Below, piece by piece: positions 1-36,173 of a stretch of DNA of 36,173 bases. How positions within the stretch are numbered: the stretch's first letter is position 1; each line of letters starts with the position of its first letter. Made by a program: the position numbers and the translations under genes. Source of the stretch: a virus (Duplodnaviria > Heunggongvirae > Uroviricota > Caudoviricetes); IMG/VR virus record IMGVR_UViG_2565956709_000006; one strand, given 5' to 3'. The notes beneath the pieces are model-generated. The model did no database searches. It was not told where the DNA came from and worked only from the letters and a program-made list of their open reading frames with translations.

Positions 1-216
1 GGCTGGCCGCTGTATGAATCCCGCCTGAAGGGAAAGCTGCACGTAATCAGCAAGCGTTACACTCAGCGCATTGAGCGACATAACCTGAATCTGAGACAAC
101 ATCTGGCAAGGCTGGGACGGAAGTCACTGTCGTTCTCAAAATCGGTGGAGCTGCATGACAAAGTCATCGGGCATTATCTGAACATAAAACACTATCAGTA
201 AGTTGGAGTCATTACC
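1..216 (+). mobile_element. insB: IS1 right end (partial): 3' part of insB plus terminal inverted repeat
   Basis: Frame 1 from nt 1 translates to [66 protein letters not shown] with stop at 199..201, recognised as the C-terminus of IS1 InsB. The element ends ...GTTGGAGTCATTACC at 216, the IS1 terminal inverted repeat. The left part of the element lies outside the window. Confidence 0.85.
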
Positions 217-239
217 GTTCCAACATATGGAAGATAAGA

Positions 240-1430
240 ATGATATTTACACGATTGAGATTTATCAATTTGTACGCTTTTGAGGATGCAGAGCTTAACC
301 TGTCCTATCCAAGGAAACCTGTAAACATGCCTCTTGATGGGGAGTTTTTGGCTGGACGGCCTAAATTTTACTATAAAAAAGTCTGTATCATAACGGGGGG
401 AAATGCTTCAGGCAAGACGTCACTAGGGCGAATTCTTTGTGGAATTCAGGTGTTTCTAAGAACCAAAGAGTTGCGGAGTAATCTGCGAGTGAATAATAAA
501 AATAATGATGCTTCGTTTGAAGTAGACTTTGCTACGGAGGAACATTTTCATCATCGTTTGTATGTACGCTTTGCTACCAGTGAAGGCGGAGCGCACATAA
601 TCAAAGAAATTAAATATGGTTTTGTTCAAATAGCATTAAATGATTCTTGCTATAAAACCACAGAAAAACTGAATCAACTCTTTTCTGGAAGGGCCCCAGG
701 AGATACAGAATATTTTTTTCAGGAACTAGCTACTGATAGCGAACCAGTTGTATTGGAGTTTTTCAAGCAACTTAAGTTTTTTGGTGGATGGTACTATTTG
801 TTGTCTGAAACTAAAGAAAGTACCACTGCAATTTCAGGAATGAATAAAAATATTCTTGAAAGGATAATTCGCACTTTCGATTCAAGTATTATAGGAGTTA
901 CCGAGATGCTGGAGTCTGAAAGTGACGGGGATGAAAATAAATCATCTGCGGTTTATCTGATTAAATTTAAAAACTCTGATTCTCTTGTCGTTACCAGTAA
1001 AGGTGAAATAATTAACTCAGACCGTCTTTCTCGAGGAACATACGAGGCAGTGACGGTAGCGCATTTTATAAGCGCTATTATCTCTGATTGTGAAAGACTA
1101 GGTAAGCAATCTCTAATACCATCAATGACTTATTTTCTTGACGAGAAATTGGCTTATACACATTCAGAGTTAGAGCGTATGATTGTGGCGCTGATTATAT
1201 CTAATTTGAAAGAAAATACTCAGTTTTTCTATACAACGCATAACATGGATATTTTTGAGTTGGATCTGCCTGTTCACTCGTTCATTTTTATTAAAAAAAC
1301 GAAAGACTATTCGGAGTTTGTTGAAGCAAATTCAGTTGTTAAAAAAAATGACCGTAGCATGCGAAACGCTGTTGAGAGAGATGTCTTTGGTGTCTTACCT
1401 GACACATCATTAGTATCGGAGCTACTCTGA
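240..1430 (+). CDS. P-loop ATPase, ABC/SMC-like (OLD/AAA_15/AAA_21-type); candidate defence ATPase
   Basis: 396-aa ORF. Walker A GGNASGKTS at aa 53-61 (nt 396..422). N-terminal F-x-x-L-x-x-x-N-x-x-F-x-D pattern typical of RecF/SMC-like ABC ATPases. Signature-like LSRGTYE, Walker B-like TYFLDE, and H-loop-like TTHN near the C-terminus. About 38 percent GC, well below the phage structural genes. The stop overlaps the start of the next ORF (ATGA). Confidence 0.75.
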   Translation: MIFTRLRFINLYAFEDAELNLSYPRKPVNMPLDGEFLAGRPKFYYKKVCIITGGNASGKTSLGRILCGIQVFLRTKELRSNLRVNNKNNDASFEVDFATEEHFHHRLYVRFATSEGGAHIIKEIKYGFVQIALNDSCYKTTEKLNQLFSGRAPGDTEYFFQELATDSEPVVLEFFKQLKFFGGWYYLLSETKESTTAISGMNKNILERIIRTFDSSIIGVTEMLESESDGDENKSSAVYLIKFKNSDSLVVTSKGEIINSDRLSRGTYEAVTVAHFISAIISDCERLGKQSLIPSMTYFLDEKLAYTHSELERMIVALIISNLKENTQFFYTTHNMDIFELDLPVHSFIFIKKTKDYSEFVEANSVVKKNDRSMRNAVERDVFGVLPDTSLVSELL

Positions 1431-1963
1431 TGGCGGGGTTGTCTAAAATAAGAATAATTTTTGTCGAAGGTGAAACAGAAAACTCTCTTTTTCAGAAGAT
1501 GAAACAACAGAGAGTTATTGATGCCAAATCAATTGTAAAAAGAAACTTTTGGCAAGAGAGCATAAGAAATTATGCGATTACTATTCCGAAGGGAAGTGAT
1601 ATACTAATTGTCTTTGATAGTGATGAAGTGGAGCAATCTGCAAGATTCATTGAAAATGTAAAGTTCCTTAAAAACAGAGGGCATAAAGTTTATCTTTTGC
1701 AGCAGAAAAGAAATTTTGAGGAGGAGTTGGCCTGGTGTTGCGGAATTCCTGTAAAAAAACTAATTGCTGGGTTCTGTGCAAAAAAAACATCGGGTATAAA
1801 TGATTTCAAGAGAGATTTTATTGCTTGTAACAATCAACTTTCAAAGTTACTGAAAATGGGCATGCAGGAAACTAAGTGGTTTACAAGAGATTTACATACT
1901 GTATTGGAGCCTGTTGCAAGTTTTAAGTCATCTTTTTCTAAACATTTCAGGTTAACAAGATGA
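1430..1963 (+). CDS. small TOPRIM-like protein (OLD-TOPRIM / DUF4276 / RloB-like), probable nuclease partner of the ATPase
   Basis: 177-aa ORF translationally coupled to the upstream ATPase (TGATG overlap). N-terminal RIIFVEGETE (aa 8-17) and ILIVFDSDE (aa 59-67) match the conserved glutamate and DxD acidic motifs of TOPRIM domains. AT-rich. Family assignment is from motif recognition only. Confidence 0.6.
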   Translation: MAGLSKIRIIFVEGETENSLFQKMKQQRVIDAKSIVKRNFWQESIRNYAITIPKGSDILIVFDSDEVEQSARFIENVKFLKNRGHKVYLLQQKRNFEEELAWCCGIPVKKLIAGFCAKKTSGINDFKRDFIACNNQLSKLLKMGMQETKWFTRDLHTVLEPVASFKSSFSKHFRLTR

Positions 1964-2098
1964 TTTATTTTCTTTTTTGTTCAGTTGATTGTTTTTGTTT
2001 GTAAAATGTCTTGATTTTTTGCCAATAAACTGTTTCAATCCAGCTACGCTTCGCAAAGCTATACCGCGAGGCGAATAGCAGACATGGACACCTGAAAG

Positions 2099-2122
2099 AA
2101 CCCGCTTTATGCGGGTTTTTTT
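2099..2122 (+). terminator. Rho-independent terminator downstream of the ATPase/TOPRIM pair
   Basis: Hairpin CCCGC-TTTAT-GCGGG (2101..2115) followed by a run of 7 T. Confidence 0.6.
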
Positions 2123-2245
2123 ATGCCTGAAAAACGGCACAGAACATTAAACGCGCTGGTAGTTGTGAATACTGGTCTTTCAGCTTGCTGGCTTTTTCGA
2201 CAAGAGGTATTGGTATGTCACGTTAACCGGAAAAGGGAAAAAGGC

Positions 2246-2443
2246 ATGCTAAAACAGCAGGATATGACCGAAACCGCCAGAGTGGTGTTTAATGAATTAA
2301 GCGTCACCGAACCGGCGACCGTCGGGGAAATTGCGCAGAATACTTACCTTTCACGCGAACGCTGCCAGTTAATACTGACTCAGCTTGTTATGGCGGGTCT
2401 GGCAGATTATCAGTTCGGTTGTTACAGACGCCTTCCGCAGTGA
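2246..2443 (+). CDS. small hypothetical protein, possible HTH/winged-helix DNA-binding protein
   Basis: 65-aa ORF (internal start of track ORF 2123..2443) preceded by a purine-rich RBS (GGAAAAGGGAAAAAGGC). The segment ATVGEIAQNTYLSRERCQLILTQL resembles a helix-turn-helix. The track start at 2123 sits inside the terminator T-run and lacks an RBS. Confidence 0.35.
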   Translation: MLKQQDMTETARVVFNELSVTEPATVGEIAQNTYLSRERCQLILTQLVMAGLADYQFGCYRRLPQ

Positions 2444-2593
2444 AGGCTTTTTAATTTGTGGTAATGGGCGGCTGGTGGGTGTTAGCGGCACCTGCCAGCC
2501 ATCTGCTCATGCGTTGGGGTCACAAGCAAACCTCAGGCCCATCTGCTTTGCGCAAAAGCGGTATGAGCCTATCAGAGAAGTGCTTATTGATCT

Positions 2594-3643
2594 ATGGCTA
2601 ATACTGTAAAAATATCCAGTTGTGAGTTAATCAACGCTGATTGCCTGGAATTTATCCAGACCTTACCGGAAAACTCTGTCGATCTTATAGTCACAGACCC
2701 GCCATACTTTAAAGTGAAACCCGAGGGCTGGGATAACCAGTGGAAGGGCGACGATGATTACCTGAAGTGGCTGGACCAGTGTCTGGCGCAGTTCTGGCGG
2801 GTGCTGAAACCTGTCGGAAGTCTTTACCTGTTCTGTGGTCATCGCCTGGCATCTGATATCGAAATCATGATGCGTGAACGCTTCAGTGTGCTGAACCATA
2901 TTATCTGGGCGAAGCCGTCCGGACGCTGGAACGGATGCAACAAGGAAAGCCTGCGGGCGTATTTCCCCGCCACAGAGCGCATTCTGTTCGCGGAACATTA
3001 TCAGGGGCCGTATCGTCCGAAAGATGCCGGGTATGCGGCGAAGGGCAGTGCACTGAAACAGCATGTGATGGCCCCGCTGATTTCTTACTTTCGTGATGCG
3101 CGCGCGGCCCTGGGGATAACGGCAAAACAGATTGCAGATGCCACAGGAAAGAAAAACATGGTGTCGCACTGGTTCAGTGCCAGTCAGTGGCAGCTACCGA
3201 ACGAAAGCGATTATCTGAAATTACAGTCGCTGTTTGCCCGGGTGGCAGAAGAGAAACATCAGCGCGGTGAACTGGAAAAGCCCCACCACCAGCTGGTGGA
3301 TACGTATACGTCACTGAACCGGCAGTATGTGGAGCTGCAGAGTGAATATAAGCATCTGCGGCGGTATTTTGGTGTGACGGCGCAGGTGCCGTACACGGAT
3401 GTGTGGACACATAAACCGGTGCAGTTCTATCCCGGGAAACATCCGTGCGAAAAACCGGCAGAAATGCTGCAGCAGATAATCAGCGCAAGCAGTCGTCCGG
3501 GAGACCTGGTTGCAGATTTTTTTATGGGCTCAGGTTCAACGGTAAAAGCTGCACTGGCGCTCGGGCGTCGTGCGATTGGCGTTGAACTGGAGACCGGACG
3601 TTTTGAGCAGACAGTCAGGGAAGTTCAGGATTTAATCGTTTGA
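2594..3643 (+). CDS. DNA methyltransferase (N6-adenine type, beta-class), orphan, no cognate restriction gene
   Basis: 349-aa ORF. DPPY catalytic motif near the N-terminus (VTDPPYF) and FxGSGST AdoMet-binding motif near the C-terminus (ADFFMGSGSTV); motif IV before motif I is the beta-class order. No adjacent endonuclease ORF. Confidence 0.85.
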   Translation: MANTVKISSCELINADCLEFIQTLPENSVDLIVTDPPYFKVKPEGWDNQWKGDDDYLKWLDQCLAQFWRVLKPVGSLYLFCGHRLASDIEIMMRERFSVLNHIIWAKPSGRWNGCNKESLRAYFPATERILFAEHYQGPYRPKDAGYAAKGSALKQHVMAPLISYFRDARAALGITAKQIADATGKKNMVSHWFSASQWQLPNESDYLKLQSLFARVAEEKHQRGELEKPHHQLVDTYTSLNRQYVELQSEYKHLRRYFGVTAQVPYTDVWTHKPVQFYPGKHPCEKPAEMLQQIISASSRPGDLVADFFMGSGSTVKAALALGRRAIGVELETGRFEQTVREVQDLIV

Positions 3644-3692: not shown

Positions 3693-3768
3693 GGCCCTTT
3701 AGCTCAGTGGTGAGAGCGAGCGACTCATAATCGCCAGGTCGCTGGTTCAAATCCAGCAAGGGCCACCA
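3693..3768 (+). tRNA. tRNA with anticodon CAU (tRNA-Ile2-like, lysidine type, or Met)
   Basis: Hand-folded cloverleaf: acceptor GGCCCTT/AAGGGCC, D-arm GCTC..GAGC, anticodon loop CTCATAA (anticodon CAT), T-arm GCTGG-TTCAAAT-CCAGC, 3' CCA. Closely resembles E. coli ileX-type tRNA. One A-C mismatch at the top of the anticodon stem. Confidence 0.85.
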
Positions 3769-3775
3769 TCACATA

Positions 3776-3852
3776 CCGCCATTAGCTCATCAGGAAAGAG
3801 CGCCAGCCTTCGAAGCTGGTTGCGCGGGGTTCAAGTCCCCGATGGCGGTCCA
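3776..3852 (+). tRNA. tRNA-Arg (anticodon UCG)
   Basis: Hand-folded cloverleaf: acceptor CCGCCAT/ATGGCGG, anticodon stem CCAGC/GCTGG with loop CTTCGAA (anticodon TCG), T-arm CGGGG-TTCAAGT-CCCCG, 3' CCA. Confidence 0.8.
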
Positions 3853-3865
3853 TTATCTGCATCAT

Positions 3866-3942
3866 GCGTTGTTAGCTCAGCCGGACAGAGCAATTGCCTT
3901 CTAAGCAATCGGTCACTGGTTCGAATCCAGTACAACGCGCCA
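3866..3942 (+). tRNA. tRNA-Arg (anticodon UCU, reads rare AGA)
   Basis: Hand-folded cloverleaf: acceptor GCGTTGT/ACAACGC, anticodon stem ATTGC/GCAAT with loop CTTCTAA (anticodon TCT), T-arm ACTGG-TTCGAAT-CCAGT, 3' CCA. Confidence 0.8.
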
Positions 3943-4179
3943 CACTTATTTTCCCTGGCTCGCTTTTGTGGGCCTTTTTTTTAAATGTCTCACAATTTAG
4001 GCGGTTGACTGTTGTCTGGTTTGCGGGGAGTTTGTTAAAAGAAACTGGCATGGTGAATCCCCCTGTGCGGAGGGGCAATCAGCGAGTAGGTATATGGGAT
4101 AATCGCGGATTCAGGTGCTGGTACTGAATTCACCGGGAGGCACCCGGCACCATGCAATGGCACATAGCGCCACTCTCCA

Positions 4180-4210
4180 GCCCCTCTCCGGAGGGGCTGT
4201 TTATATTGAT
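4180..4210 (+). terminator. Rho-independent terminator in the tRNA to nanS-p intergenic region
   Basis: Perfect 7-bp stem GCCCCTC/GAGGGGC with 4-nt loop (4180..4197) followed by a T-rich tract TGTTTATATTGATTTT. Confidence 0.55.
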
Positions 4211-4233: not shown

Positions 4234-4569
4234 TTATGGACTTTGTTGTTTTAGCCCATAAGGACATATTTGCAGAGTGCAACGGTTATTAAAGCATTCA
4301 TTCAATACGTTATCTGTATTTGTAGGGCATTCCTGGCTGTTTTTGATTAAATTCCAGAATGTTTTATTGAATGGTACTACGTTGTAAATGGTTACAGGTA
4401 GCACTTTGTTATTGAGCATGATGCCTGTGTGAGTCAGTGTAAATATACTTTCAGGAGGTAAGAAAGCATCCGATTGATACCAGATTATTAATTTTATTTT
4501 ACTCCATATGACTGAAAAAGATATTCCGCATGATGGCTGGATAACTGTATCAATCACAATCCACTTCAT
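4234..4569 (-). CDS. hypothetical protein (AT-rich candidate ORF in the stx-equivalent slot)
   Basis: 111-codon open frame in an AT-rich region where stop codons are frequent by chance. Plausible RBS (AGGAAA about 6 nt upstream of the ATG) on the minus strand. No recognisable motifs. Confidence 0.3.
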
Positions 4570-29484: not shown

Positions 29485-32391
29485 ATGACAGTAAAAATTT
29501 CTGGCGTGCTTAAAGATGGCACAGGAAAACCAGTACAGAACTGCACCATTGTGCTGAAGGCCAGACGAACCAGCAGCACGGTGGTGGTGAACACGGTGGC
29601 CTCTGAAAATCCGGATGAAGCCGGACGTTACAGCATGGATGTTGAGCATGGTCAGTACAGCGTCACCCTGCTGGTTGAAGGTTTTCCGCCTTCACATGCC
29701 GGGACCATTACCGTCTATGAAGGTTCCAGACCAGGTACGCTGAATGATTTTCTCGGTGCCATGACGGAGGATGATGTCCGACCGGAGGCACTGCGCCGCT
29801 TTGAGCAGATGGTGGAAGAGGTGTCACGTAACGCCTCCGCGGTTGCACAGAATACGGCAGCCGCGAAAAAATCAGCCAGCGATGCCAGTGCATCAGCCAG
29901 CGAGGCGGCAACTCATGCAACCGATGCTGCAGCCTCAGCACGTGCCGCCAGCACGTCAGCCGGACAGGCCGCGTCGTCGGCTCAGTCAGCGTCTTCCAGC
30001 GCAGGAACGGCATCGACAAAGGCCCGTGAAGCAGCAAAAAGTGCTGCTGCTGCAGAGTCATCAAAAAGCGCGGCAGCTACCAGCGCCAGTGCCGCGAAAA
30101 CGTCAGAAACGAATGCCGCAGCATCACAAAAATCGGCAGCCACTTCTGCATCCACAGCGACCACGAAGGCGTCAGAAGCTGCCACCTCGGCACGGGGTGC
30201 GGCGGCCTCAAAAGAGGCAGCGAAATCATCAGAAACGAACGCATCATCAAGCGCCAGTAGTGCCGCTTCCTCGGCAACGGCGGCAGGCAATTCCGCGAAG
30301 GCGGCAAAGACGTCTGAGACAAACGCCAGGTCTTCTGAAACGGCAGCGGGACAGAGCGCCTCGGCTGCGGCAGGCTCAAAAACAGCGGCTGCGTCGTCTG
30401 CCAGTGCCGCGTCAACAAGTGCCGGGCAGGCCTCAGCCAGTGCCACCGCCGCCGGAAAATCGGCAGAAAGCGCCGCATCATCCGCTTCAACAGCCACAAC
30501 GAAGGCTGGCAAAGCCACTGAGCAAGCCACTGCAGCAGCGAGGTCTGCTTCTGCAGCAAAAACCTCTGAAACAAATGCAAAGACTTCAGCAGACAATGCT
30601 GCTTCCTCTAAGGCGGCAGCCGCATCGTCAGCCAGTTCAGCGGCGTCATCGGCATCATCTGCGTCTGCTTCAAAAGATGAGGCGACCAGACAAGCGTCAG
30701 CAGCGAAAGGTAGTGCCACGACAGCAACAATGAAAGCATCAGAGGCAGCTGGTAGTGTGACGGCGGCAGCTCAGAGCAAAAGTACGGCGGAATCCGCGGC
30801 AACGCGCGCCGAGACAGCAGCAAAACGGGCAGAGGATATTGCATCCGCCGTGGCGCTGGAGGATGCGAGCACGACGAAAAAGGGGATAGTACAGCTCAGC
30901 AGTGCGACCAACAGCACTTCCGAGTCACTGGCGGCAACGCCAAAAGCGGTTAAGGCGGTAATGGGTGAAACGAACAAGAAAGCGCCCTTAAATAGTCCTG
31001 CACTGACCGGAACGCCAACAACACCAACTGCGCGACAGGGAACGAATAATACCCAAATCGCAAGCACGGCTTATGTTATGGCTGCGATCGCTGCCCTCGT
31101 GGACTCGTCGCCTGACGCACTGAATACGCTGAACGAGCTGGCTGCGGCGTTGGGCAACGACCCGAATTTTGCGACCACCATGACTAACGCGCTTGCGGGT
31201 AAGCAACCGAAAGATGCCACCCTGACGGCGCTGGCCGGGCTTGCTACTGCGGCAGACAGGTTTCCGTATTTTACGGGGAATGATGTTGCCAGTCTGGCAA
31301 CCCTGACAAAAGTTGGGCGGGATATTCTTGCGAAATCGACCGTTGCCGCCGTTATCGAATACCTCGGTTTACAGGAAACGGTAAACAAGGCTGGTAACGC
31401 CGTTCAGCGTTCCGGCGATAAAATGACCGGAGAACTGAAAATTGGCACGGTGAATGCGCTGCGAATTTTCAATGATGCCTTCGGTCTTATTTTCCGTCGT
31501 TCAGAAGATTTTCTTCATTTCATTCCGACGGCTGAAGGACAAGGCGAAAACGGTGATATAGGCCCATTAAGGCCATTCGCTATAAATCTGAGAACAGGTG
31601 CTATATCTGTCAGCCACGGGGCCAAAATTGATGGTGGGCTGGCGCTTGGTACAGATAACGCACTGGGCGGTAATTCCATTACTCTCGGAGATAACGACAC
31701 TGGTATTAAACAGGGCGGCGACGGTGTCCTTTTATTCTATTCAAATGGACAACTGGCATTTGGACTTCAACCCGCATCTGCTGATTTTTATAAGCGGGTT
31801 GCATATATTCATCAGGGAATAATTCCTGATGGAAGTGGCGCATTTGCAGACCAGTTGAATAATGCCACCGCGCCTTTTGTTCAGACGCAGTTTGCCTGGA
31901 ATCCCACTCCTGGTGGTCATTACGTGCCGATAGTTAAGGGCTTGTCCATTCGCAATGGACAGGGCTATCCCGGCGCGGTCAGCTTTGGGTATTTACTGAC
32001 AGAACAGTATGGATTTCCGGTTCCATGTATTCATATGCGTGGCGATGGCGGTAATGATGCTTTATGGCAGTTTAACCCGAACGATAAATCCTTTATTTCA
32101 CCGGGTGCTCTTATTGCGGGTGGCGTCCGTTATAACACCGATGGAAATATATTTGGTGGGTGCTGGGGTTCAAACTTAAATGATTACCTGAATAGTTCTT
32201 TTATCAGAAATGTGCGTCTGGGAGGCAGACGTTCTGACACATTATATCGCGGAGGACTTTGCGAACCAGGTAATGGTCATGTGACAACAGGATTGCAAAT
32301 TATTGGTGAGGTTGATGGAGATGACTGGATGGTGTCACGACCACTACAAAAATACATTTCTGGTAACTGGTATAACGTTGAACAGGCATAG
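29485..32391 (+). CDS. stf: side tail fibre protein (constant N-terminal part, Ala/Ser-rich repetitive shaft, variable C-terminal tip)
   Basis: 968-aa ORF. Conserved prophage Stf N-terminal domain (MTVKISGVLKDGTGKPVQNCTIVLKA...), then about 330 aa of low-complexity Ala/Ser/Thr-rich repeats (recurring KTSETNA units). The C-terminal third begins at a gix-like recombination site and shares the motif ALGGNSI.LGDNDTG.KQ with the silent alternative tip on the opposite strand. Confidence 0.9.
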   Translation: MTVKISGVLKDGTGKPVQNCTIVLKARRTSSTVVVNTVASENPDEAGRYSMDVEHGQYSVTLLVEGFPPSHAGTITVYEGSRPGTLNDFLGAMTEDDVRPEALRRFEQMVEEVSRNASAVAQNTAAAKKSASDASASASEAATHATDAAASARAASTSAGQAASSAQSASSSAGTASTKAREAAKSAAAAESSKSAAATSASAAKTSETNAAASQKSAATSASTATTKASEAATSARGAAASKEAAKSSETNASSSASSAASSATAAGNSAKAAKTSETNARSSETAAGQSASAAAGSKTAAASSASAASTSAGQASASATAAGKSAESAASSASTATTKAGKATEQATAAARSASAAKTSETNAKTSADNAASSKAAAASSASSAASSASSASASKDEATRQASAAKGSATTATMKASEAAGSVTAAAQSKSTAESAATRAETAAKRAEDIASAVALEDASTTKKGIVQLSSATNSTSESLAATPKAVKAVMGETNKKAPLNSPALTGTPTTPTARQGTNNTQIASTAYVMAAIAALVDSSPDALNTLNELAAALGNDPNFATTMTNALAGKQPKDATLTALAGLATAADRFPYFTGNDVASLATLTKVGRDILAKSTVAAVIEYLGLQETVNKAGNAVQRSGDKMTGELKIGTVNALRIFNDAFGLIFRRSEDFLHFIPTAEGQGENGDIGPLRPFAINLRTGAISVSHGAKIDGGLALGTDNALGGNSITLGDNDTGIKQGGDGVLLFYSNGQLAFGLQPASADFYKRVAYIHQGIIPDGSGAFADQLNNATAPFVQTQFAWNPTPGGHYVPIVKGLSIRNGQGYPGAVSFGYLLTEQYGFPVPCIHMRGDGGNDALWQFNPNDKSFISPGALIAGGVRYNTDGNIFGGCWGSNLNDYLNSSFIRNVRLGGRRSDTLYRGGLCEPGNGHVTTGLQIIGEVDGDDWMVSRPLQKYISGNWYNVEQA
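31352..31377. repeat. left crossover site (gix/pix-like 26-bp inverted repeat) inside stf
   Basis: TTATCGAATACCTCGGTTTACAGGAA. Matches the reverse complement of 34433..34458 at 22 of 26 positions and resembles the known gix/pix consensus (TTCCTGTAAACCGAGGTTTTGGATAA). Confidence 0.8.
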
Positions 32392-32406
32392 CCATCAGGA
32401 GAATAT

Positions 32407-32934
32407 ATGCAACATCTGAAAAATATTACCGCCGGAAACCCCAAAACCATTGAGCAGTATCAGCTTACGAAAAAAGCTGGCGTTATCTGGCTATATACAG
32501 AAGACGGTAAAAACTGGTATGACGAATTAAAAAACTTTCAGGATGATACTTTAAAAATAGCTTATGACCAGAAGGGGATTATTCGTTGTATTGAGAAAGA
32601 CGTATCAACACTTAACCCTGACGGGTTAAGTGTTGTTGAGTTACCGAATATAACAGCCAACCGTCGCGCCGATATCTCGGGAAACTGGAAGTTTCTGGAT
32701 GGTAAAGTAGTAAAGCGGGAATATACAAAACAGGAACTGCAACAGCAGGCAGAGTTACAAAAAGCCGCTTTGCTTTCCGAAGCGGAGTCTGTGATTCAAC
32801 CGCTGGAACGTGCTGTCAGACTGAATATGGCAACTGATGAGGAACGCACACGACTGGAATCATGGGAACGCTACAGCGTTATGGTCAGCCGTGTGGATAC
32901 TGCAAAGCCTGAATGGCCACAGAAACCAGAATAA
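32407..32934 (+). CDS. tfa: tail fibre assembly protein (expressed copy)
   Basis: 175-aa ORF with RBS AGGAGAATAT, directly after stf. Tfa-family N-terminus ([38 protein letters not shown]). Paralogous to the convergent minus-strand copy. Confidence 0.9.
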
Positions 32935-32944
32935 CAACAAATTA

Positions 32945-32965
32945 AGGCCCGTACGGGCCTTTTCT
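32945..32965. terminator. bidirectional terminator between the convergent tfa genes
   Basis: Palindrome GGCCCG-TA-CGGGCC flanked by A/T runs. Confidence 0.6.
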
Positions 32966-33498
32966 TATTCTGGTGGTTCCGGGAATGTTACAGGAAGAAC
33001 CGAGGTATCAGTTGTCTCAACCTGTTGCACGTATCGCATCCAGTTCATCAGTTGCTGTCTGTCTGAATCAGTGATAATCCCCAAAGTAAGCTGTGTTTGC
33101 CAGAACTGCGTTTTTTCTCTGGCCTGCTGTAATAATATTTTTTTCTGGTTTTCCGTCTGTAGGCGCAACTCTTCTTCGGTATATACACGTTTAATGACTG
33201 CGCCATCTTTAAACATCCATTTACCTGAGTCGTCAGCACGCCGGTTGGCGGTAATATCAGGAATCTCAACGACGCTATAACCTTCAGGGTTAAGTGTGGA
33301 GGCATCTTTGGTTATGGCAACAATAATATTATTTTCATCGTAAACAATCTTTATGGTGTCTGGCTGAAAGTTTTTCACTTCCTCATACCAGTTTTTTTCG
33401 TCCTCAGAGTAAAGCCAGATAACTCCGTGTTTCTTTGTTAACTCATACTGTTCCAGTGTTTTAGCATTACCCGCTTTTATGTTCTTTAAGTGCATCAT
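32965..33498 (-). CDS. tfa: tail fibre assembly protein, alternative (silent-orientation) copy
   Basis: 177-aa minus-strand ORF ([38 protein letters not shown]...) paralogous to tfa; inverted orientation inside the invertible segment. Confidence 0.85.
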
Positions 33499-33499
33499 A

Positions 33500-34432
33500 T
33501 TAAACGCTCGCTACATTATACCAGGTGCCATTTATATACTTTTGAACGGGTCTGTAATAAACGCCCGCTATATTATCGGCAGAGTTAGACCCTGTATCCT
33601 GAACATTAATACCAGACAATACATGACCTGAAGGGCACCGGAAATACCATGTTTGCCAGTTGTTCACTCCATAATATTGCTGTGAACCAAGTCGAACATC
33701 TTTCACATAACGGGAATCAAAGTTACCGTAATCCGAGGGGTTAACACGCCCTGTAATATTTATGGTTTTATTACTTTGAATGCTTCCGGAGACAAAGCGC
33801 ATAACATGGACGTTATTAGCATAAACATCCAGATTACCATCGCCATTTTGTTTAAAGCCCGTGTCATTATCACCCAATACAATCGAATTACCGCCAAGAG
33901 CACTGGATGTTCCGATACCCAGTGTACCATTCAGTTGACCACCAGATAACGGCAGTGCACCAACATCTCCTGCTGAAGGTTTTCTGGTGGTGGTGTAAAA
34001 TTCGGACCAGTCGGCTTCAAAACCATAACCATCACGGGCTGAACGATAAAAAACACCGCCATTTTTATAATTAATCCGAAACTGAGCTGCAGGACAACTT
34101 CCTTCTCCCATATAAAAATGAATAATTAACGTTGATGCACCACTAATAGTTGCGTTATAGGCTCCGCTACTCCAGTTCCATCCAACTGCTTTATCATTCG
34201 CAACGGTGCTTCCTGTTTTCCCTAAGGCAAACGCACCAACATGACTTGCTTTTAATGTGATATCGGAGGAACCATCAAAAGCCACATTGCTTATTTTCCT
34301 GGCAGTTTTTAATTTTGCAGCTGTAGAAGCATTGCCGGATAGTTCACCAGAAAGGCCACCGCTGAATGTTTGTCGATTAGTCCAGGTATTCGCTGTACTG
34401 AGTAACGGTATTTTCTCCCCGCTTGTGCCGAG
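33500..34432 (-). CDS. alternative side tail fibre C-terminal segment (promoterless silent cassette; fuses to the stf constant part after inversion)
   Basis: Minus-strand frame open from the right crossover site (manual translation from 34450 downward: [17 protein letters not shown]...AFDGSSD...) to the stop at 33500. In-frame with stf across the crossover core (CTC GGT TTA). Shares [22 protein letters not shown] with the expressed tip. The track lists only the part from an internal GTG (33500..34285). Confidence 0.75.
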
Positions 34433-34458
34433 TTCTCGTAAACCGAGGTTTTAGATAA
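34433..34458. repeat. right crossover site (gix/pix-like 26-bp inverted repeat)
   Basis: TTCTCGTAAACCGAGGTTTTAGATAA, inverted partner of 31352..31377, located just upstream of the pin gene as in Mu G / P1 C / e14 invertible segments. Confidence 0.8.
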
Positions 34459-34512
34459 TGGCGGTTTCTGGCCTGTATGGCATGATTTGTGCTTTTGGAC
34501 GGGAGATTCAGC

Positions 34513-34745
34513 GTGCTGATTGGCTATGTAAGGGTATCAACAAATGACCAGAATACAGATCTGCAACGAAACGCTCTTGTTTGTGCAGGATATGAACAAA
34601 TATTTGAAGATAAATTAAGCGGAACAAGGACAGGCCGACCTGGATTAAAACGTGCTTTAAAGCGCCTTCAAAAAGGTGACGCACTGGTTGTCTGAAAACT
34701 GGACTGACTGGTTCACTGTATGCGGCATCTTGTCGTGCTGGTGGT
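34513..34745 (+). pseudogene. pin: pin-type serine DNA invertase, inactivated (nonsense mutations and 3' truncation)
   Basis: GTG start. The first 59 codons encode VLIGYVRVSTNDQNTDLQRNALVCAGYEQIFEDKLSGTRTGRPGLKRALKRLQKGDALVV (catalytic Ser in YVRVST). Then TGA where the family has Trp, a second in-frame TGA four codons later, and after about codon 76 the sequence runs into a tfa 3' fragment. The resolvase catalytic core and C-terminal HTH are missing. Confidence 0.8.
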
Positions 34746-34746
34746 G

Positions 34747-34887
34747 GAAGCCTGGAAAAAGTATCGGGTGTTGCTGAACCGTGTTGATACATCAACTGCA
34801 CCTGATATTGAGTGGCCTACGAACCCTGTCAGGGAGTAATCATTGGGATTATGCCGCAGCACGTCTTAAGCAAGAACGTGCTGCGGT
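34747..34887 (+). repeat. direct repeat copy A: tfa 3' end fragment plus hairpin
   Basis: Encodes ...[30 protein letters not shown]-stop, followed by an 11-bp-stem hairpin (CCGCAGCACGT ... ACGTGCTGCGG). About 88 percent identical to 35796..35938, including an identical 39-nt core CGTGTTGATACATCAACTGCACCTGATATTGAGTGGCCT. Confidence 0.8.
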
Positions 34888-34893
34888 TGGATG

Positions 34894-35562
34894 CTATTTT
34901 TTCCCTGAAGCGGAAAACATTACTACAGTACCTTGAACCTTGGTTTTAACATTCTCGAAATGCTCTGAGAGTATATGTGTTAAGCCTTCTTCGGAATCTT
35001 TTGTGTTTGAAAAGATGCCTTTCTGATTGTAAATGCGCATCAGTTTTTGACCGAAGCTATTGTGCACAACTCCATCGCCAAGAATTGTGGCTCCGTATAG
35101 AGTTCCATCGTCAGTTAAGGCCTGCGCCGCATTGCGTATTACACAGCTTTTTGTAGATATATTTCCAGGCAGGCAGTGAAGAAGGTAAAACATGGAAATG
35201 GAATCAAATTGACCATGTAACGCCGCGGGATAAGGTTCAAAAACATCATGGCTAATTTTATGTTTAATTTTTGATTCCCCAGCCCTTGTAGATGCCGCGT
35301 TCAGGCTAGCTTCGTTCAAATCCATTAAAGATATCAGACTACTCTCAGGTACGTGAGTAAGGTAAAACCCAGTTCCAACACCAATATCCAGATGGTTGTT
35401 ACCTACATGTTCCAGAAAGTGTGGAAGAAGGTGTTCCTTTGTAGGACATCCCCATGCAAGCCGATTTGATACTCCCAAAACCCACCAGTCATAAAGCTTT
35501 AGGGTAAGTGGTGTGTAAATTTTAGCCCCATCATCTGTGTTTTTTTTCATTGATTTCACCAT
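34894..35562 (-). CDS. class I SAM-dependent methyltransferase (small-molecule/protein/RNA type, not a DNA MTase by motifs)
   Basis: 222-aa minus-strand ORF (alternative start at 35550 has the better RBS). Motif I LDIGVGTGFY, acidic post-I residue (LMDLNE), motif II FDSISMFYLLHCLP, motif III LTDDGTLYGATIL. AT-rich relative to the phage structural genes. Bracketed by direct repeats. Confidence 0.7.
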   Translation of the reverse strand: MVKSMKKNTDDGAKIYTPLTLKLYDWWVLGVSNRLAWGCPTKEHLLPHFLEHVGNNHLDIGVGTGFYLTHVPESSLISLMDLNEASLNAASTRAGESKIKHKISHDVFEPYPAALHGQFDSISMFYLLHCLPGNISTKSCVIRNAAQALTDDGTLYGATILGDGVVHNSFGQKLMRIYNQKGIFSNTKDSEEGLTHILSEHFENVKTKVQGTVVMFSASGKK

Positions 35563-35618
35563 GTTATAGTTTTATTTGTGAATTAAATCAATTATGGCGA
35601 TGAATTACAAGGGGTTAA

Positions 35619-35888
35619 ATGCTGCCGCAGCATAGCGATATTGAAATAGCCTGGTATGCTTCGATACAGCAGGAGCCGAATGGCTGGAAGACCGTCACCA
35701 CACAGTTCTACATCCAGGAATTCAGTGAGTATATTGCGCCACTGCAGGATGCTGTAGATCTGGAAATCGCAACGGAGGAAGAAAGATCGTTGCTGGAGGC
35801 ATGGAATAAATATCGGGTATTGTTGAATCGTGTTGATACATCAACTGCACCTGATATTGAGTGGCCTGCAAATCCTGTCAGGGAGTAA
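35619..35888 (+). CDS. tail fibre assembly protein C-terminal-domain remnant (truncated tfa-like ORF)
   Basis: 89-aa ORF with RBS AAGGGG. The C-terminus ...[37 protein letters not shown] aligns with the Tfa C-terminal region. Lacks the Tfa N-terminal half. Confidence 0.5.
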
Positions 35889-35938
35889 TCATTGGGATTA
35901 TGCCGCAGACACGTCGTATGCAGGAACGTGCTGCGGTT
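35796..35938 (+). repeat. direct repeat copy B: tfa 3' end fragment plus hairpin
   Basis: See copy A. Together the two copies bracket the SAM methyltransferase gene. Confidence 0.8.
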
Positions 35939-36002
35939 AGTTTGTGAGCTTTCGATAGTGGTTGTTATTTTTGCCCTTATTTGTTCCGGAGGCCATGGTT
36001 CA

Positions 36003-36173
36003 ATGGTCCGTCTGCCCCCTGTGGTGATGTCAGCAAAATCAGCCACTGCGCGAACCACAATAGCCCGGGAAGATGCTGAAGATCACCAGGTAAAGCTATC
36101 AGCGCAGAAACTGGAAGAACTGCTCGCATCAATGGTTAAGGATGAGGTTGATCGCAATGATGGGATTTATTGA
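36003..36173 (+). CDS. small hypothetical protein (56 aa) at the window edge
   Basis: Internal ATG of track ORF 35892..36173 with RBS GGAGG 10 nt upstream. Encodes MVRLPPVVMSAKSATARTTIAREDAEDHQVKLSAQKLEELLASMVKDEVDRNDGIY. The upstream part of the track ORF overlaps the repeat hairpin and is unlikely to be coding. Confidence 0.35.
   Translation: MVRLPPVVMSAKSATARTTIAREDAEDHQVKLSAQKLEELLASMVKDEVDRNDGIY

Follow-up and report, generated by a model that had tools for sequence, protein, structure and literature searches.

A phage-borne gene pair for an ABC ATPase and a compact TOPRIM-like protein as a candidate AbiL-like abortive-infection module

The window examined here is the whole 36,173-nucleotide stretch of the IMG/VR virus record IMGVR_UViG_2565956709_000006, a member of the Caudoviricetes. 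Close to its left end, two open reading frames (ORFs) follow each other on the plus strand, namely ORF1 (240..1430, 396 aa) and ORF2 (1430..1963, 177 aa), whose stop and start codons overlap in an ATGA at positions 1427-1430. We consider that they probably form a phage-borne two-gene abortive-infection module of the class that joins an OLD-like ABC ATPase to a TOPRIM protein, with lactococcal AbiL as the closest defined relative, and we assign to this reading a probability of roughly 0.62. We establish the domain identities of the two proteins, that of ORF2 by motif and predicted topology, their catalytic motifs, the retention of the coupled operon, the co-divergence of the two genes, the purifying selection acting on both and their residence in variable phage slots. 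Because the best matches of both proteins in a database of defence systems are AbiL components, and because the architecture is that of AbiL, we file the pair as a divergent AbiL-like member.

In a preliminary description made from the sequence alone, the cassette had been presented as a candidate module of the OLD/PARIS/AbiL class, a claim that is supported as far as sequence analysis reaches. The two translationally coupled ORFs have the coordinates and lengths given there, and all of the motifs that it quoted are present (GGNASGKTS, with K59, LSRGTYE, YFLDE and TTHN in ORF1; IIFVEGETE and ILIVFDSDE in ORF2). These motifs are not chance occurrences, because they coincide with invariant columns in the alignments of ORF1 and ORF2 relatives. 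The foreign, AT-rich composition of the cassette is also real, with a guanine-cytosine (GC) content of 36.1% in the ORFs (240-1963) and of 35.7% in the segment 217-2002, as compared to 53.0% in the remaining window (2003-36173); the earlier estimate for the cassette was about 38%.

An ABC-type ATPase and its small TOPRIM-like partner

Sequence and predicted structure both identify ORF1 as an ABC ATPase of the Rad50/PtuA/OLD type, with AbiLi as the closest defined family. In an alignment of 39 relatives, with identities down to 35%, the invariant columns are those of the ABC motifs: G58-K59-T60 within Walker A (G53-T60, nt 396-419), R262, S264, G266 and T267 within the signature (R262-T267, nt 1023-1040), D301-E302 of Walker B (nt 1140-1145) and H334 of the H-loop (nt 1239-1241), all on the plus strand. 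When compared to the defence profiles of PADLOC, ORF1 matches AbiLi (PDLC02335) with an E-value of 4.3e-25 and 86 bits, its residues 3-390 aligning to profile positions 50-288 out of 326, and a second AbiLi model (PDLC02336) is matched at 2.4e-5. AbiLi leads the next PADLOC match by fourteen orders of magnitude (mad3 at 2e-11, PDC-M12A at 5.8e-8, AriA at 1e-7 and PtuA at 1.5e-3). The same span of the profile is matched, at 1e-19 to 1e-30, by each of ten remote family members, which belong to the Firmicutes, Fusobacteria, Treponema and Proteobacteria. All Pfam matches of ORF1 are sub-threshold, and include AAA_15 (1.2e-6, 28.8 bits, threshold 32), AAA_21 (19.2 bits, threshold 27) and SMC_N (E-value 8e-4); the similarity to RecF is likewise weak (0.014).

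The AlphaFold2 model of ORF1 has a mean predicted local distance difference test score (pLDDT) of 86.5. Its closest structures in a Foldseek search are Rad50, the heads of SMC proteins, PtuA of Septu and of retrons, and the Thermus OLD protein, with E-values between 1e-10 and 1e-7 and template modelling (TM) scores of 0.35-0.47. In this model, residues 150-260 approximately, between the N-terminal lobe and the signature, form a mixed alpha/beta insert and not a long coiled coil. The ABC fold, the motifs and the far better match to AbiLi than to any other defence family bear out the earlier assignment of ORF1 to the ABC/OLD-like P-loop ATPases.

For ORF2, the identity as an OLD-type TOPRIM nuclease is well supported by motif and predicted topology, and unconfirmed by the fold search. 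Its 58 aligned relatives, which come from several phyla, all retain E13, G14, E17, D63, D65 and E99, while E97 is found in 57 of them and N39, N76, N95 and K127 are each found in more than 85%. The conserved acidic residues E13 and E17 are encoded at nt 1466-1468 and 1478-1480, the DxD pair D63 and D65 at nt 1616-1618 and 1622-1624, N95-x-E97-x-E99 at nt 1712-1726 and the conserved lysine K127 at nt 1808-1810, again on the plus strand. The AlphaFold2 model (pLDDT 89) displays the order b1 (8-12), helix, b2, helix, b3 (57-63), helix and b4 (86-92), followed by further helices. On this model, E13 directly follows b1, the DxD directly follows b3 and N95-E99 directly follow b4. In the Burkholderia OLD protein, the two-metal site is built from E400/E404, D455/D457, T506-x-E508, where the helical domain begins, and K562 (PMC6755086). 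The six acidic residues of ORF2 (E13, E17, D63, D65, E97 and E99) are predicted to reproduce this OLD site in order. Both its beta-alpha topology and the order of its acidic residues thus favour the TOPRIM-type partner that had been proposed.

The profile evidence for ORF2 comes mostly from its family. We scanned 40 members and found AbiLii in 22 (best 1.5e-5), OLD-like_TOPRIM in 10 (best 2e-4) and RloB in 4, with HEC-01B in a few and single matches to ATPase-Toprim, GajA, Toprim_2 and DUF4276. The recurrent weak matches are to TOPRIM-type models only. The DUF4276-like partner that the preliminary description had also considered is not borne out, as this family was matched by just one of the 40 members (E-value 0.04), and we rejected it. 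The consensus of the family matches AbiLii at 1.6e-5 (profile positions 28-103), mad4 at 2.8e-3 and OLD-like_TOPRIM at an E-value of 0.046 (positions 6-66 out of 67). In an hhalign comparison with a single Old sequence, that of phage P2, the ORF2 family aligns to residues 394-548, which correspond to the TOPRIM region, with VEGKTE and DCD in register.

Homologues of ORF2 fall into 108 clusters in a word-indexed search, and 620 representatives of clusters at 50% identity were recovered at an E-value of 1e-3 or lower among 1.84 billion. The best 150 of these 620 all stand alone, 146 of them being approximately 145-212 aa long and four being 85-127 aa long. None of these representatives has a precomputed Pfam domain or a name. 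In PHROGs, two families of unknown function were matched, and the scan of the cassette proteins against NCBIfam returned nothing useful. We also observed a 103-aa E. coli protein annotated as 'transposase' (P0019) that is 100% identical to one quarter of ORF2, which suggests a copy of ORF2 disrupted by an insertion sequence (IS) in another genome.

The gene pair and its place in prophages

The two genes are kept as a unit. We took one genome per species and found an ORF1 relative in 77 loci of Gamma- and Betaproteobacteria, Firmicutes, Fusobacteria and Treponema. An ORF2 relative lies directly downstream in approximately 65 of them, and the remainder are contig ends or decayed copies. Similarly, 37 out of 39 IMG/VR contigs with an ORF1 relative also have the ORF2 partner. 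The order is always ATPase first and small partner second (60 out of 60 measurable loci), with a junction between -20 and +20 nt and overlapping genes in 31 cases. Separate genes are hence the rule in this family, both at the genome loci and in the best 150 ORF2 representatives, and the genuinely split two-component architecture that had been put forward as one option is the correct one.

The pairwise identities of ORF1 relatives correlate with those of the corresponding ORF2 relatives (r = 0.85), a value reached by none of 2,000 Mantel permutations. This shows joint inheritance of the pair and is no proof of mutual binding. As compared to the Erwinia ortholog, the proportions of nonsynonymous differences (pN) are 0.18 and 0.21 for the two genes and those of synonymous differences (pS), which are saturated, are 0.83 and 0.93, and both genes are under purifying selection. 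In around ten loci (L015, L029, L049, L055, L059, L060, L065, L069, L070 and L077) the ATPase gene is intact and the small gene is frameshifted, truncated or missing. The reverse decay, with the small gene intact and the ATPase gene broken, is rare inside contigs, in a sample that is small and includes contigs of metagenome-assembled genomes. This asymmetry fits a small protein that is toxic when unguarded.

The relatives are annotated solely as 'hypothetical protein' or 'ATP-binding protein', and our literature searches found no publication that describes the ORF1/ORF2 pair. Relatives were detected in 2 out of 50,697 deposited phages and in 1 out of 72,556 plasmids. In Oligella urethralis (L006 1-3819), two further ATPase genes of the AAA_15 type lie directly upstream of the pair, each with a small downstream partner, together with an IS transposase of the rve type, and the region has the appearance of several similar two-gene systems side by side.

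The DNA that corresponds to positions 217-2600 recurs, with 99.4-100% identity, in 7 out of 5,426 complete E. coli genomes. In these genomes the host is a phiP27-like lambdoid prophage with the gene order DUF968, RusA, DUF1133, ORF1, ORF2, a 66-aa ORF, DNA methyltransferase, three tRNAs and lysis genes. From this order, the DUF1133 gene would hold the position of the late antiterminator in prophages of the phiP27/Stx type. The same backbone with an empty slot occurs in E. coli strain 97-3250 (L087), and in E. coli STEC388 the slot (L086 5227-6731) contains a pair formed by a Ser/Thr kinase and a PP2C phosphatase, with an IS1 element approximately 25 bp upstream. Since the slot is empty in one strain and hosts the kinase and phosphatase in the other, we regard the interval after the DUF1133 gene as a hotspot of cargo exchange.

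By aligning occupied and empty versions, we found that approximately 1.9 kb (L001 5881-7786) take the place of 39 bp of the empty-site version. Besides both ORFs, the swapped segment includes an 89-nt spacer and the final 54 nt of the DUF1133 gene. In the window, the foreign AT-rich segment ends with a T-rich tail (1964..2002, plus strand), and the homology to empty-site prophages restarts at 2003. There, L087 3001-3012 aligns with L001 7787-7798, which equals window positions 2003..2014 on the plus strand (AAAATGTCTTGA) and is identical to the final 12 nt of the empty-site DUF1133 gene with its stop codon. We interpret this short leftover of the 3' end of the other DUF1133 allele as a recombination scar and as the right boundary of the module, which makes the cassette a module exchanged by recombination and not IS1 cargo. 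As judged from the aligned sequences, it came by recombination inside the 3' end of the DUF1133 gene.

Other alleles occupy other slots. In P2-like prophages, the Klebsiella relatives (41-45% identity) occupy the known hotspot that is flanked by the portal gene and gpA and that contains old and tin in P2 itself. Nine out of the 5,426 E. coli genomes have a second allele (58% and 53% identity), which occupies the integrase-proximal end of a lambdoid prophage situated by the pot operon. Overall, with two alleles in 7 and 9 of these genomes, the distribution in E. coli is sporadic.

At the left end of the window (1..216, plus strand), an IS1 element terminates with its right end, which comprises the 3' end of insB and a terminal inverted repeat that ends in GGAGTCATTACC, and IS1 transposase annotations underlie the database matches to this part. 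The inverted repeat ends 23 bp before the ATG of ORF1, so that 23 nt of the native leader remain (217..239, plus strand) with a Shine-Dalgarno-like GGAAG at 229-233. The cassette had been described as IS1-adjacent, and the adjacency is correct, but IS1 is no part of it. The same cassette has no IS1 in the seven complete E. coli genomes mentioned above (L001 and L002 among them) and in six near-identical IMG/VR contigs (L095-L099 and L116). The insertion is a later, secondary event outside the module, unique to the window and unrelated to the origin of the cassette. Given these IS1-free copies, we rejected a composite transposon with IS1 as the vehicle, which is also countered by the boundaries of the module, namely the swapped 3' end of the DUF1133 gene and the 12-nt scar.

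Downstream of the module, 130 nt past the stop codon of ORF2, a strong hairpin that resembles a terminator, with a U run behind it, occupies positions 2093..2122 of the plus strand. It has a folding energy of -20.3 kcal/mol (z -6.3; none of 200 shuffles folds equally well) and is flanked by A and U runs. A simple terminator scan had overlooked it, and the Rfam scan of positions 1-2600 found no RNA element. The hairpin belongs to the backbone common to empty-site prophages, as it is present in 97-3250.

Three tRNA genes follow at 3693-3942, 1.7 kb past the cassette, with the anticodons CAT (tRNA-Ile in relatives), TCG (Arg) and TCT (Arg). Phage tRNAs can counter TOPRIM effectors that act as tRNases, such as AriB and P2 Old; the same tRNAs are found in prophages that have no cassette, and hence no link to the cassette is shown. 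An AT-rich patch with a GC content of 0.39-0.43 contains a match to the small RNA STnc100 (4019-4208, 132 bits) and then an IraM-like anti-adapter gene (4234-4569, minus strand), whose label is taken from the annotation of relatives. A second AT-rich stretch, from 31500 to 36173 (GC 0.41-0.45), is located at the tail-fibre end of the prophage, contains several minus-strand ORFs and may be further accessory cargo.

Proposed mechanism and rival readings

The A-B complex of the two proteins, its trigger, its substrate and a protective phenotype we infer by analogy only. The most likely arrangement, on this analogy, is that the ATPase acts as the sensor of infection and as the guard, and the TOPRIM protein as the effector. 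ORF1 is a compact ABC ATPase that lacks a long coiled coil, and it would oligomerise and keep ORF2 inactive. A signal from the infecting phage, which could be a phage protein or a nucleic acid of abnormal structure, would shift the ATP-dependent state of ORF1, and ORF2, a two-metal TOPRIM nuclease of approximately 20 kDa, would be released or activated. It would then cleave nucleic acid, most likely the anticodon loops of tRNAs as do AriB and P2 Old, less likely DNA, and translation or replication would halt before progeny form. In PARIS, AriA releases AriB, a tRNA-Lys nuclease, upon binding of Ocr, and according to a recent preprint P2 Old is an abortive tRNase that is gated by the tetramer of its own ATPase. 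The AAA/TOPRIM toxin-antitoxin pairs of NetFlax offer a further precedent.

Several results weigh against the assignment to an AbiL-like defence module. ORF2 is below every Pfam threshold, with 16.2 bits for RloB (cut-off 31.5) and 14.6 bits for OLD-like_TOPRIM (cut-off 23.2), and its sole PADLOC match, AbiLii at 1.7e-3, spans only profile positions 31-53 (23 out of 170). AbiLii is the best available yet a remote match, ORF2 does not reach the AbiLii/RloB profile of the second AbiL component and, as judged by profiles, membership in AbiL proper fails there. The hhalign probability between the ORF2 family and P2 Old is only 3%, and searches of PDB sequences with the profiles of both families gave no meaningful relative. 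The profile and structure searches that the preliminary description had suggested came out well for ORF1 (AbiLi at 4.3e-25; ABC fold in Foldseek), but for ORF2 the profiles stayed under the RloB and OLD-like_TOPRIM cut-offs with no DUF4435, and the fold searches did not single out TOPRIM. Finally, in the window, IS1 cuts a native promoter-like element off from the cassette. We consider it possible, though somewhat short of an even chance, that the pair represents a distinct and unnamed clade of OLD-like split systems, invisible to Pfam, under the thresholds of PADLOC-type models and with its own trigger and substrate specificity. Within that same tentative reading, the effector would be the smallest known two-metal TOPRIM nuclease of the OLD type (approximately 175 aa) and the ATPase would have neither a coiled coil nor a dimerisation insert.

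Since IS1 separates the native promoter-like element from the genes, the copy in the window may be silent. The native loci have a promoter-like TTGACG-17-AATACT in the spacer (L001 5964-5992), which by count is no better than expected by chance. The window IS1 inserted approximately 8 bp downstream of the -10-like hexamer and left the promoter-like element on its far side, and the plus strand of positions 1-240 holds no promoter-like site beyond chance expectation. Expression of this copy would rely on transcription out of, or through, IS1. It is conceivable, if rather doubtful, that the cassette of the window is a silent remnant, in which IS1, perhaps together with an adjacent deletion, has uncoupled the cassette and possibly the late region from their promoters and left the genes intact and unexpressed. 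The position of IS1, so close to the ATG and just past the hexamer, agrees with this, as does STEC388, in which a correspondingly placed IS1 borders an early region that is truncated. However, both ORFs are intact, three other complete genomes have copies with 100% identical DNA, and insB points in the same direction as the cassette, which would allow transcripts to read through. As for a deletion, the window does not reach the left end of IS1 and gives no means of assessing it. In any case, a silent copy would concern the state of the cassette in this window and not the identity of the module.

Two other functions have to be weighed against phage defence. The pair could be a toxin-antitoxin or addiction system whose main task is to stabilise the mobile element or the slot rather than to exclude phages, with ORF2 as the TOPRIM toxin and ORF1 as the AAA-type antitoxin. 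The tight translational coupling would suit such a system and the asymmetric decay of the two genes fits a toxic ORF2, although the sample of decayed loci is small and partly metagenomic. The NetFlax study (PMC10440598) validated, as toxin-antitoxin pairs, TOPRIM_OLD toxins that AAA proteins neutralise. One role does not preclude the other, as PARIS has been described both ways, and slots that otherwise hold known defence genes point to defence; we consider a mainly addictive role improbable. Far less probable is a role in the DNA metabolism of the phage, for the recombination or replication of the prophage itself, in the manner of RecF/RecR or SbcCD. The ABC ATPase RecF has as its partner RecR, which is a small TOPRIM protein, ORF1 is weakly similar to RecF and to SMC_N, and the module comes directly after RusA/NinG-like recombination genes. 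However, close prophages have no module, or have unrelated cargo in the same slot, and the module is thus unneeded for phage growth. It is also foreign in composition and sporadic in distribution, ORF2 has neither a helix-hairpin-helix nor a zinc-finger part and keeps the full set of OLD-type two-metal ligands, and AbiLi is by far the best match of ORF1. We thus judged a RecF/RecR-like role very unlikely.

If functional, the abortive-infection module would add to the ABC ATPase and TOPRIM class a compact, widespread and currently unannotated member, and a defence family could then be recognised in the prophages of Enterobacteriaceae, Moraxellaceae, Neisseriaceae, Lachnospiraceae and others. 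It would also identify the region behind the DUF1133 gene as a place where defence cargo is exchanged, and provide a minimal OLD-type nuclease of approximately 20 kDa for the study of the gating of TOPRIM effectors by ABC ATPases. Views on OLD-like immunity in general would stay unchanged, and the pair is a reasonable experimental candidate that would be no surprise to the specialist.

Comparison with known systems

The module resembles several known systems in part. Components of the ATPase and TOPRIM type are shared with mad3 and mad4 of MADS and with HEC-01A and HEC-01B of PADLOC, but MADS comprises multiple genes, the others of which are absent at the cassette, and all MADS and HEC-01 matches are weak (2e-11 for mad3 with ORF1, 2.8e-3 for mad4 with the ORF2 consensus). 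We rejected IbfA/HEC-04, which is a fused protein of 518 aa and not a two-gene pair, and Gabija, in which GajA, a fused OLD protein, goes with the UvrD-like helicase GajB next to it, because there is no adjacent helicase here: the neighbours are IS1 or DUF1133 upstream, and the 66-aa ORF and the DNA methyltransferase downstream. The closest solved structures of ORF1 include PtuA of Septu and of the retrons Ec78, Eco7 and Ec83. However, the partner of PtuA is an HNH nuclease and the PtuA profile is marginal on ORF1 (1.5e-3), and we rejected Septu because ORF2 has no HNH match.

PARIS is also a split pair of an ABC ATPase with a TOPRIM protein in hotspots of phages and satellites, and the sequestration and release of the tRNase AriB by AriA provides the template for the mechanism proposed here. 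The differences are in the proteins. AriA profiles are weak on ORF1 (1e-7 to 2e-5), the ORF1 model has no coiled-coil insert, and AriB has 35 kDa as compared to approximately 20 kDa for ORF2. We rejected PARIS because ORF2 has no DUF4435 (PF14491) at an E-value of up to 1, none of 40 relatives has it at an E-value of up to 0.1, and ORF1 remains below the AAA_15 and AAA_21 thresholds.

Class 1 OLD proteins, such as P2 Old, likewise combine an ABC ATPase with a TOPRIM domain that has the pattern E-x3-E, DxD, x-E and K. P2 Old has 586 aa and the two proteins of the cassette have 573 aa combined, and the Klebsiella relatives share the interval of old in P2. However, P2 Old is a single polypeptide, its hhalign E-values (0.013 and 9e-4) indicate very low similarity, and the TOPRIM and helical regions are much more compact in ORF2. 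The catalytic residues of OLD (the glutamate, the DxD, the ligands of the second metal and the lysine) are found in ORF2 by motif only, in line with the low OLD-like_TOPRIM score. We rejected class 1 OLD because the proteins are separate here, as they are in all of the best 150 representatives of the ORF2 family.

AbiL, encoded by AbiLi and AbiLii on the Lactococcus lactis plasmid pND861, is classed among the ABC ATPase and TOPRIM systems. A search of PLSDB by tblastn, with ORF1 and with a Firmicutes relative as queries, retrieved no lactococcal plasmid, only one Acinetobacter plasmid and two cyanobacterial ATPases. AbiLi, with 453 aa in the superposition shown in a review, is longer than ORF1 (396 aa), which covers positions 50-288 of the 326 in the AbiLi profile. 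The likeness to AbiL is one of profiles and not of direct comparison with AbiL sequences. In both cases, two adjacent and co-directional genes encode an ABC ATPase first and a TOPRIM/RloB-type protein second, both pairs are borne on mobile elements, and the best PADLOC matches are AbiLi for ORF1, with a clear profile match, and AbiLii for ORF2.

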